Below, piece after piece: positions 36,001-39,000 of a DNA stretch of 64,000 nt. Made by a program: the position numbers. The number at the start of each line of letters is the position of its first letter. Within the stretch, counting starts at the first letter, position 1. The stretch lies in assembly GCF_013167455.1 (NCBI RefSeq), contig NZ_CP038328.1; one strand, written 5' to 3'. This DNA comes from Escherichia coli O157:H7 (GTDB taxonomy: Bacteria; Pseudomonadota; Gammaproteobacteria; Enterobacterales; Enterobacteriaceae).

Positions 36001-39000
36001 ACTGTTGACACAAAAACAGTTTTTAATTGTAGATTACATACACCAACCACCCACCCCGCCCCACAGAACGCCGGGCAATACTTCGAGTTACCAAGCAGTG
36101 GTCAGGGGGTAAGTAGCCAGCCCGAGGCGTATGAACATGACGGCAGGGTTCAACTTTAATAACTATGCAGCAGGTTTTTGTTCCGCTACCCGGCGTTAAG
36201 GGGAAATGAGGTCAACATGGATACTATCGATCTTGGCAACAACGAATCTCTGGTGTACGGCGTGTTTCCCAACCAGGACGGTACATTCACCGCGATGACG
36301 TATACCAAAAGCAAAACGTTTAAAACCGAAAATGGTGCCCGTCGCTGGCTGGAAAGAAACTCAGGTGAGTGATATGGATTTCGACACAATCATGGAAAAG
36401 GCTTACGAAGAATACTTCGAAGGCCTTGCCGAAGGCGAGGAAGCTCTCAGCTTCAGTGAGTTTAAACAGGCGCTTTCCAGTTCGGCAAAATCTAACGACT
36501 AACGGAGTTAAAGATGGAATTTAAAGATTTACTAAAAGAAATCCAGGAAATTGCAGCACATGCACTTCACCAACGTCTGAACGAAGTTGAATTAGAATCT
36601 GCAACGAAGAAATACATTGATAATATGGCTCGTAATGTGCGCGATGCGTTTACCGGATTGTACTCTGTTTCGGTAACAAACAACCAGAATACTGAAGAAA
36701 CTGCAAAGCGGATTGCCTCGGTGATGGGTTTTCATGTCGAGGAAAAGTATTCAAAAAAAGAATTCTGGAAAACTACAAAAAAATTGCAGAGCGAGAACTG
36801 TCATCTCCTGCGGCAATCGCTTCTTTCTATGAGGAAAGTTATTCAGATGACACAGGATTACCGGAACTGCTCTCATTACTTGAAAAATTCGGAATTATCA
36901 TGAAAGGGACTGCGTCGGCGGATTTCACATACTCAATGATGGCTGCTGATGGAGAGCCTTTTCCTCCCGAACTTAAAATAACCCCCGGCAATCATCCGAT
37001 GGTAACAATAAGAGCAATAGAGAATTACTGGTTTAATCCAGTTCAACAATAGTTGGTCTTTGCAATATTTTTAATGGGCCACTACGCCCTTAATCTCGGG
37101 CGGCGTTTAACTCTTTATTCAGTAAATCAGACTGATACTGATTTGGCTTTGTAATGATACTGTCAAGTTTTGATATATGAAATTCAACATGTTCTGGACA
37201 GTTAAAAATGTAATAACCGCCCTTCTCTAAAAAGCCAGAAAGAGCGTTACAGGCAGGGCATGGTTTGTTTGGCATTTTATCCTCCATTAAGGGCTGAATT
37301 AAAAATGGAGACCAACACGCTGCTACGTGTGGTCGTGCGCCGGACACAGATAAGAATCCGGCACTGACAGTTTACTGAAAGGATATATCCCTGAAAAGTC
37401 AGGGCATAACACGAAAGTGCACGGCGAAGTCCTTCTCCCTTAGAGCCGTCGTTAAATTTAATTCGACCGTGCGCTTCCGGTTGTGGCAATCCGCGAAATG
37501 GCGCGGCGGTAAGTATGGCGGGGTTATTCTTTCCCCGTTGAGGACACCGGGTTGTCAGGTTGACCATACGCTTAAGTGACAACCCCGCTGCAACGCCCTC
37601 TGTTATCAATATTCTGGTGACATTTGGCGGTATCAGTTTTACTCCGTAACTGCTCTGCCGCCCTTTTTTAAAAGTGAATTTTGTGATGCGGTGAATGCGG
37701 CTCAGCGCACGCGGAACAGTTAAATCGGTAAAGCGGTCATTTGCTGAGTAACGAGAATGCTCTGTATCCGGCGTTAATTGTTAACTGGTTAACGTCACCT
37801 GGAGGCACCAGGCACCGCATCACAAAATTCATTGTTGAGGACGCGATAATGGAAAAGTTATCATGTAATGCCAGCACGTCTGAACTTCGTTTCGAAATTG
37901 GCGTTATCACTGGAGACAAAACATTTATTGAAGACGCCATTAAGCAGAGAAAACTCGAGCAGGACCTGTTAAATGAAGTATGCATTCCTTCAATGCTGGC
38001 TCGTCTGGACCTGCTGCAAAAAGGATATAAACAATGAATACAACATTTGCACTCGTTCTGACAGTTTATCTTGTTTCCGGCGAATCTCTTGAGCTGGTGA
38101 CTGGCTTATACGGTTCAATGAAAGAATGCATGGCTGCAGCAGCAGAACAAAAAATTCCCGGTAACTGTTATCCGGTAGATAAAACTACTCACACTAATAA
38201 TAACGAAATACCGGCAGGACTTTAAAACAGCACCGTAATTAATATCCGGTTTCATTTTTATATGCCAGCAATGGCAGGGATTTGTTCACCCTTAAATCTG
38301 TAATGAGGTTAAAACACAATGAGTAAAATCTTTATTTGCGCTGCTATTCCTGACGAACAGGCCATAAAAGAAGATAGCGCTGTTGCGGTGGCCACTGCCA
38401 TTGAAGCCGGTGATGAGCGTCGCGCACGCGCAAAATTTCACTGGCAATTTCTGGAGCAATTCCCGGCAGCTCAGGACTGCGCTTATAAATTTATTGTCTG
38501 CGAGGATAAACCCGGCATACCCCGCCCTGCCCTCGATTCCTGGGATACCGAATATATGCAGGAAAACCGCTGGGATGAGGAGTCAGCTTCCTTTGTACCG
38601 GTCGAACCAGAATCCGATCCGATGAACGTCAATTTTGACAAGCTGTCCCCTGAAGTACAGAACGCAGTCCTGGTTAAATTCGACACATGCGAAAACATCA
38701 CCGTTGATATGGTGATTAGCGCACAGGAATTACTACAGGAAGACATGGCAACATTCGGCGGACATATCGTTGAAGCGTTGATGAAAATGCCAGAAGTTAA
38801 CGCCATGTATCCTGAACTTAAACTGCATGCCATCGGGTGGGTTAAGCATAAATGTGAGCCTGGCGCTAAATGGCCTGAAATTCAGGCAGAGATGCGCATC
38901 TGGAAAAAACGTCGCGAAGGTGAACGCAAGGAAACCGGAAAATACACGTCTGTTGTTGATCTCACCCGCGCCAGAGTCAACCAACAGAACACTGAAAACG

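Follow-up and report, generated by a model that had tools for sequence, protein, structure and literature searches.

An interval of prophage DNA in Escherichia coli O157:H7 (positions 37090-37740 of the window, a 64,000-nucleotide stretch of contig NZ_CP038328.1 from assembly GCF_013167455.1) very probably holds two unrelated things that abut within a dicBF operon: dicF, a gene for a small regulatory RNA (sRNA), with its leader on the plus strand, and ECs1061, a gene for a small zinc-ribbon protein, on the minus strand. We put the probability of this reading at about 0.82. In strain Sakai the locus is annotated as ‘prophage Sp4, lambda-like phage’, which we take to be CP-933M of strain EDL933, and many E. 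coli O157:H7 chromosomes match the 1-kb stretch around the interval at 100% identity.

A preliminary description, made from the sequence alone, had viewed the same DNA as a RalR/Lar-like zinc-ribbon gene beside a structured and probably non-coding stretch compatible with a cis-encoded regulatory sRNA. What it had observed was all found in place: the open reading frame (ORF) of 61 amino acids with a CPxC...GYY...C pattern, the poor coding character of 37350-37700 (where RefSeq annotates no coding sequence), the strong hairpin and the CCGCCC-T6 end. Its interpretation fared less evenly: a regulatory sRNA is encoded there, but it is the trans-acting DicF on the plus strand rather than a cis-encoded RNA, and the protein is modelled as a zinc ribbon, but the RalR/Lar label found no match by profile or by fold. 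The sRNA at this site is thus one already known, and ECs1061 is a truncated, uncharacterised prophage gene. A false lead is thereby averted, the candidate type I toxin-antitoxin system with a cis sRNA being, on our reading, the long-studied DicF, in one of its several copies in enterohaemorrhagic E. coli, beside an unrelated orphan gene.

DicF within the dicBF operon

Covariance search and RNA folding, two checks suggested by the preliminary description, both returned a structured RNA. A scan against Rfam placed DicF (RF00039) at 37612-37663 on the plus strand, with 76.9 bits (gathering score, 48; E-value 2.4e-16) and a match to the full model (positions 1-52 of 52); no other Rfam family matched within 35000-40000. 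The segment 37334-37672 was predicted to fold with a z-score of -3.2, and none of 100 shuffled sequences folded as well. Counted from 37611, 50 of 53 bases are those of K-12 dicF, the changes falling at positions 1, 12 and 38. A Rho-independent terminator was predicted in the minimum free energy fold (stem 37626-37662, U6 at 37664-37669), and the CCGCCC at 37658-37663 together with the T6 at 37664-37669 make up its 3′ half.

Alignment with the Qin prophage of K-12 extends this identity well beyond the sRNA itself. Homology sets in abruptly at about 37334; from there on, leader, dicF, spacer and dicB align at an identity of about 90% (90.5% by blastn over 37334-37700), and the hairpin picked out in the preliminary description, with its arms GGGTTGTCA (37549-37557) and TGACAACCC (37577-37585), is identical in K-12. 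Because of the RF00039 match and the K-12 alignment, we assign the CCGCCC-T6 end to the DicF terminator and the hairpin to the DicF precursor. Among 5426 complete E. coli genomes, 4028 carry the dicF leader at a coverage of at least 80%. To judge from these alignments, the structured region is the known prophage sRNA DicF with a conserved precursor.

RefSeq leaves this copy of dicF unannotated, which explains why the region of the preliminary description looked empty. The same is true of the O157 and most other E. coli records listed, dicF being annotated in K-12 and in phage Tritos; pointing out the unannotated O157 copy is one useful outcome of the analysis. Two potential coding sequences that overlie the conserved RNA, an ORF of 110 amino acids on the minus strand (37277-37609) and one of 36 amino acids on the plus strand, are unannotated in RefSeq and were rejected as genes.

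The surrounding genes fit a dicF locus. Their order, ydfA-ydfB-ydfC-dicF-dicB-ydfD, is that of the dicBF (early-left) operon of K-12 Qin, next to an immunity region of DicA/DicC type, as seen from the RefSeq annotation and from matches to DicB, DUF1391, YdfB and DUF1482. Several dicBF copies have been described in the O157 strains Sakai and EDL933, in CP-933O, M and P (PMC5069750).

We regard DicF as a trans-acting sRNA and not as the cis regulator, dedicated partner or antitoxin of ECs1061, because four kinds of observation in sequence data point the same way. In K-12 Qin, DicF and its leader occur in the absence of ECs1061, and the leader is present in 4028 genomes against 386 for ECs1061. 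Conversely, at the loci of a distant ECs1061 homologue (P0005, described below) the homologue is placed in the same way, antisense within an early-left operon, and neither DicF nor the leader is present. The longest exact complement between DicF and the ECs1061 messenger RNA (mRNA) is 7 nucleotides, and the predicted duplex was equalled or surpassed by 120 of 300 shuffles for the whole mRNA and by 63 of 300 for its initiation region, i.e. at chance level. Finally, DicF belongs to the plus-strand operon and is transcribed away from ECs1061. Of the features of a type I toxin-antitoxin system, we found neither a dedicated antisense sRNA (the only sRNA being DicF) nor co-occurrence of a toxin with its sRNA.

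The minus-strand gene ECs1061

The protein encoded by ECs1061 reads MPNKPCPACNALSGFLEKGGYYIFNCPEHVEFHISKLDSIITKPNQYQSDLLNKELNAARD. Its start codon is an ATG preceded, at a distance of six bases, by a GGAGGA Shine-Dalgarno sequence, and its motif, CPAC-x10-GYY-x3-C-PE-H, supplies three cysteines and one histidine (C6, C9, C26 and H29), all invariant in five of five family members. Against a copy of 78% identity that is unannotated in its own record (locus L008, NZ_LR882057.1), the ratio of nonsynonymous to synonymous substitution rates (dN/dS) was 0.15 in the frame of the ORF, as against 0.43-1.5 for the remaining five frames, and phrog_10133 matched over the full length of the protein (E-value 7e-48). 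Because of these two results, we consider ECs1061 a real gene rather than a chance ORF, and one that shows the signature of purifying selection within its family. An AlphaFold2 model (mean pLDDT, the predicted local distance difference test, 76.8) has four beta strands and a C-terminal helix, which describes a predicted zinc ribbon plus helix; the protein looks soluble and not like a membrane peptide. Scans of Pfam, NCBIfam and PADLOC gave no match, PF14354 and all other Pfam families remaining without one even at E-values up to 10.

The family is a very narrow one of Escherichia prophages. A word-indexed search found two near-identical clusters and a profile search five clusters, while an exhaustive phmmer search of 1.84 billion representatives returned four matches, among them a single true distant relative (P0005, 91 amino acids, 48% identity); the others were two spurious repeat proteins and a 25-residue fragment of the same protein (P0006). 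A tblastn search of 50,697 phage records found nothing, and neither did literature searches on ECs1061, its accessions and phrog_10133. What is useful about the gene is that it represents a selectively constrained, very narrow zinc-ribbon family whose slot, antisense within a toxic operon, is conserved.

The O157 allele itself is shortened. A premature TAA at 37090-37092, where the relative P0002 has serine, cuts ECs1061 to 61 of 80 codons, and the in-frame tail that follows the stop still has a dN/dS of 0.11 against the intact L008 copy; because intact relatives exist and the tail remains in frame, we interpret the allele as a recent nonsense truncation. The O157 gene may accordingly be no more than a decaying remnant, a pseudogene that no longer functions, a view compatible with our account of DicF and to which we would give somewhat less than even odds. 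The stop takes away 19 conserved codons, the neighbouring ydfC-like gene is frameshifted as well, and Sp4/CP-933M is described as a defective prophage (PMC5069750). Set against this, the truncation leaves both zinc ribbon and helix in place, the strong Shine-Dalgarno sequence and ATG are intact, and the truncated allele is found at an identity of at least 99% in 381 of the 5426 complete genomes, the last being weak evidence given the youth of the O157 clone.

Sequence comparison also defines the place in which the gene sits. The segment 37053-37333 is absent from K-12 Qin, and about 370 other genomes match the window here only over 37264-37333, that is, over the first codons, the Shine-Dalgarno sequence and some 50 nucleotides upstream. 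In strain 503829 this conserved start runs into a different ORF of 69 amino acids, WP_001716420.1 (phrog_4274, E-value 9e-50), which has only the Shine-Dalgarno sequence, the start codons (MPNK) and the same upstream 50 nucleotides or so in common with ECs1061. Because the shared start continues into different ORFs, the gap between ydfC and the dicF leader is a minus-strand slot in which the start region is conserved and the ORF bodies are exchangeable.

Some points weigh against our reading of DicF and ECs1061 as unrelated neighbours. Any transcript that runs from the operon promoter dicBp as far as dicF must be complementary to the whole of the ECs1061 mRNA; regulatory cross-talk between the dicBF read-through transcript and ECs1061 is possible. 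No convincing sigma-70 promoter for ECs1061 was found in consensus and hexamer scans (three variants). The candidates were weak: TTTTCA-17-TAAACT about 90 nucleotides upstream of the gene, and TTGCCA-17-TCGAAT in the window copy, which reads GTGCCA-17-TCGAAT in NZ_CP025869.1 (L009) and is absent from L008. The role of the protein is a best guess, namely that ECs1061 is or was an accessory (moron-type) protein expressed in the lysogen, whose zinc ribbon would bind nucleic acid or protein. Lastly, when two small family alignments were compared with hhalign, RalR was matched with a probability of 62.6%, over 25 columns only.

The complementarity just described could reflect a pair under antisense control. 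The minus-strand cassette and the polycistronic dicBF operon would be transcribed towards each other, RNase III would cut the resulting duplex, and each partner would in this way regulate the other; the ECs1061 protein would then be made only while dicBp is repressed, in lysogeny, or transcription of its gene would dampen leaky production of DicF and DicB. We think this unlikely. The geometry is there, the start and 5′ region on the minus strand are kept while the ORF body is swapped, and the antisense orientation persists in the 48%-identical homologue; yet no ECs1061 promoter was identified in the scans, K-12 and most dicBF operons work without the cassette, and the conserved 5′ segment may be no more than the edge of a recombined stretch.

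It is more doubtful still that ECs1061 is a very divergent restriction-alleviation protein of the Lar family, acting independently of DicF, although its size and its place in a prophage early region are typical of anti-restriction genes. PF14354 was present in the positive controls, RalR of the K-12 Rac prophage and 17 of the 19 relatives retrieved for it, and RalR also matches the ‘Lar-like’ phrog_599 at an E-value of 1.4e-16, whereas three members of the ECs1061 family matched no Lar PHROG at E-values up to 1. Among the best 50 Foldseek matches in AFDB50 stood the protein's own family, followed by generic TFIIB/RPB9-type ribbons at E-values above 0.3, and no Lar protein; against the Protein Data Bank (PDB), Foldseek gave nothing at an E-value of 0.001 or below. 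What does link the two is local: a pairwise BLASTP alignment with RalR had 10 identities over 24 residues (KPCPxC...GYY..C) at an E-value of 0.004, which is that of a single comparison, and the profile-profile similarity runs across the N-terminal zinc knuckle and beta-hairpin. Those 25 columns amount to a zinc-ribbon motif of a generic kind, the protein differs in its second half, the Pfam, PHROG and Foldseek tests fail, and the gene, unlike ralR, is oriented against its operon. As far as sequence and model comparison go, ECs1061 as a demonstrable homologue of Lar/RalR is not supported, and any kinship between the two zinc knuckles would be very remote.

Least credible of all, and highly improbable, is a type I system in which ECs1061 would be a RalR-like (or Lar-like) toxin and the adjacent region its cis-encoded antitoxin or regulatory sRNA in the manner of RalA: the motif shared with RalR, an early-left location like that of ralR in Rac and the fact that an sRNA does adjoin the gene speak for it, but that sRNA is a conserved trans-acting RNA found in about 4000 genomes, mostly without ECs1061, its complementarity to ECs1061 is not beyond chance, ECs1061 homologues occur without DicF, PF14354, Lar PHROG and Foldseek Lar matches are lacking while the RalR controls match, the ligands form CxxC...CxxH and not CxxC...CxxC, and the protein lacks the hydrophobicity of most type I toxins.

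Processing of the leader and a recurring RNA domain

In K-12, DicF is cut from a polycistronic transcript that starts at dicBp, upstream of ydfA; RNase III gives rise to a species of 190 nucleotides and RNase E to one of 53 nucleotides, and an internal promoter was not found (PMC10448788). The leader in the window being about 90% identical, we would expect its processing and its targets to be those worked out in K-12. Transcription from the repressor-controlled dicBp would read through ydfA-ydfB-ydfC into 37334-37669; RNase III would cut a long stem to release a species of about 190 nucleotides starting near 37478 and including the hairpin of the preliminary description; RNase E would then yield the 53-nucleotide DicF, with the GGCGG...CCGCC-U6 hairpin serving as terminator; and DicF would pair in trans with the ftsZ, manX, xylR and pykA mRNAs.

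The predicted stem at 37405-37485 is a likely substrate for RNase III. Counting 190 nucleotides back from the U-tract puts the putative RNase III end near 37478, a position that forms the 3′ flank of this stem. Copies of the stem vary by changes from U.G to C-G and from C-G to U.G, which points to the plus-strand RNA as the structured molecule, because each U.G pair would turn into an A.C mismatch if the minus strand were transcribed. In the predicted fold of the 190-nucleotide species, a junction is followed by a small hairpin and then by the terminator; the stem that closes the junction encloses three hairpins, at 37491-37506, 37508-37548 and, as the one flagged earlier, 37549-37585.

The core of this 5′ structure in the DicF precursor (about 37491-37590) turns up again, unaccompanied by DicF, in several other phages and prophages, which is a useful result in itself. 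It lies between the repressor gene and yfdP in an e14/CPS-53-like prophage, directly downstream of the C1-controlled Pban promoter in P1, P7 and P1-like plasmids (the P1 record AF234172.1 labels its copy ‘dicF-like region’), and also occurs in phage cdtI, in Stx2c phages and in a Salmonella phage. RNAalifold predicted 26 pairs on an alignment of 11 sequences, in which 97.4% of cells were paired, against 37-65% when partners were slid; three pairs showed compensatory changes and the covariation score exceeded that of all 500 shuffles. One of the compensatory changes, from U-A to C-G in the P1/P7-type copies, concerns the flagged hairpin. No Rfam family covered the domain at E-values up to 1.

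We tentatively suggest, at odds that fall short of even, that this four-helix-junction domain of about 115 nucleotides (37480-37594) is a mobile phage RNA module, and that it could serve as a scaffold or processing domain (or one that modifies RNA polymerase) for phage sRNAs derived from operon leaders, with interchangeable 3′ ‘seed’ ends. If so, the 190-nucleotide DicF species would have a function of its own beyond that of a precursor. The homes of the domain that lack DicF are the Pban leader of P1/P7, with another short 3′ hairpin-terminator, and the gap between the repressor gene and the first early genes in e14/CPS-53-like and cdtI-type prophages.

Downstream of dicF, the spacer before dicB has a very stable predicted fold (Table 1), including a 19-nucleotide exact inverted repeat (37675-37693 and 37817-37835), and may be an RNase III site that separates dicF from dicB. 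It resembles the STnc100 sRNA (RF02076) weakly, at 33.6 bits against a threshold of 47, with similar weak matches at the loci L011 and L012.

At the other end, just upstream of the K-12-homologous leader, a plus-strand ORF of 20 codons (METNTLLRVVVRRTQIRIRH, 37305-37367) starts in the conserved segment. It looks kept in L008 and L009 when the alignment is inspected by eye, and it may be fortuitous.

Genomic setting and comparison with known systems

Table 1. Positions of the features discussed; coordinates are those of the window unless another record is named.
Feature	Position	Strand	Remarks
Genes before the interval, in order		+	helix-turn-helix repressor, relB / relE-parE, ydfA (DUF1391), ydfB, ydfC-like gene
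In-frame remnant of ancestral C-terminus	37033-37089	-	GRSGPLKILQRPTIVELD*; 18 codons matching relatives
ECs1061 (ECs_1061, WP_001133046.1), C3H zinc-ribbon ORF, 61 amino acids	37090-37275	-	phrog_10133; RefSeq ‘hypothetical protein’
Conserved start and 5′ region of the slot	37264-37333	-	GGAGGATAAAATG plus ~50 nucleotides upstream
Alternative ORF WP_001716420.1, 69 amino acids	L009 (NZ_CP025869.1) 1803-2012	-	phrog_4274; in ~370 E. coli genomes
Upstream part of conserved dicF leader	37334-37477	+	predicted long stem 37405-37485
5′ domain of the ~190-nucleotide DicF precursor	37478-37610	+	closing stem 37480-37487/37587-37594
Copies of the multi-hairpin domain	window 37480-37594; L013 (P1 AF234172.1) 1501-1654; L016 (P7); L011 2501-2623; L017 (cdtI); L015 (Salmonella phage F1055)
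DicF sRNA, 53 nucleotides	37611-37669	+	terminator stem 37626-37662 plus U6 tract
dicF-dicB spacer	37670-37845	+	very stable predicted branched fold closed by a 21-bp near-perfect stem, z = -6.0
dicB (cell division inhibition protein)	37849-38037	+	downstream gene, same operon as dicF
Genes after the interval, in order		+	dicB (NF049927, 123.7 bits), DUF1482 (ydfD), RecE-like exonuclease, excisionase-like gene, integrase
ALIL pseudoknot, STnc100 sRNA and three transfer RNA genes	20814-20930, 23460-23650, 23730-23976	-

Two neighbours within the operon region deserve mention. A type II toxin-antitoxin pair, relB / relE-parE (35461-35939, plus strand), separates the repressor gene of the prophage from ydfA, in the immunity and early-left region. 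The ydfC-like gene (36514-37052, plus strand) is apparently frameshifted relative to a homologue of 186 amino acids in L008: in a tblastn search with that homologue, frame 1 matched residues 1-91 and frame 3 matched residues 73-178, with the change of frame near an A7 run at about 36776-36782, and RefSeq annotates only a 5′ part of 129 amino acids.

Farther away, the same prophage encodes the type I antitoxin RNA sok (RF01794) at 28701-28875 on the minus strand, with 105.6 bits against a threshold of 59 and at a distance of about 8 kb. The window thus has a genuine system of the hok/sok type, though away from the site flagged in the preliminary description. It also has an ALIL pseudoknot (121.5 bits), which we take to be an element of IS3-family frameshifting, a full STnc100 sRNA (138 bits) and three transfer RNA genes, presumably the ileZ-argN-argO cluster annotated in Sakai Sp4.

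Among known proteins, the closest to ECs1061 are those of its own family, phrog_10133 (of unknown function) and the uncharacterised A0AAN3SP49 and A0ABD7FN14, which were its sole significant Foldseek matches; intact members of the family have 80-91 amino acids, in contrast to the 61 of the window copy. RalR (Lar) is similar in being small, in its N-terminal KPCPxC...GYY..C zinc knuckle and in its lambdoid early-left location. The ligands, however, are C3H in ECs1061 (CxxC...CxxH) and C4 in RalR (CPFC...CNGC), and the second half consists of CPEH and a long helix in the one and of CNGC and a Gly-rich tail in the other. ECs1061 moreover runs opposite to the early operon, unlike ralR, and no complementary sRNA resembling RalA is present.

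For the RNA, the nearest relative is DicF of K-12 Qin, which has the same terminator, a leader of about 280 nucleotides (about 90% identity) and the same flanking ydfA, ydfB, dicB and ydfD. The window differs from Qin in its longer and frameshifted ydfC homologue, in the minus-strand ORF slot (37033-37333) between ydfC and the leader, and in its relBE-type pair, for which Qin has no counterpart between repressor and ydfA. The antitermination RNA put of phage HK022, compared by description only, has two stem-loops in about 70 nucleotides, as against the three-hairpin junction found here. The Pban leader of P1/P7, like the window, has the multi-hairpin domain of about 100 nucleotides (37491-37590) followed by a hairpin-T6 terminator. 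In P1/P7, however, the terminator is their own, the antisense core of DicF is not conserved and the Rfam DicF model misses the P1-like copy, and the domain sits straight after the C1-controlled promoter, whereas that of the window comes after three ORFs.

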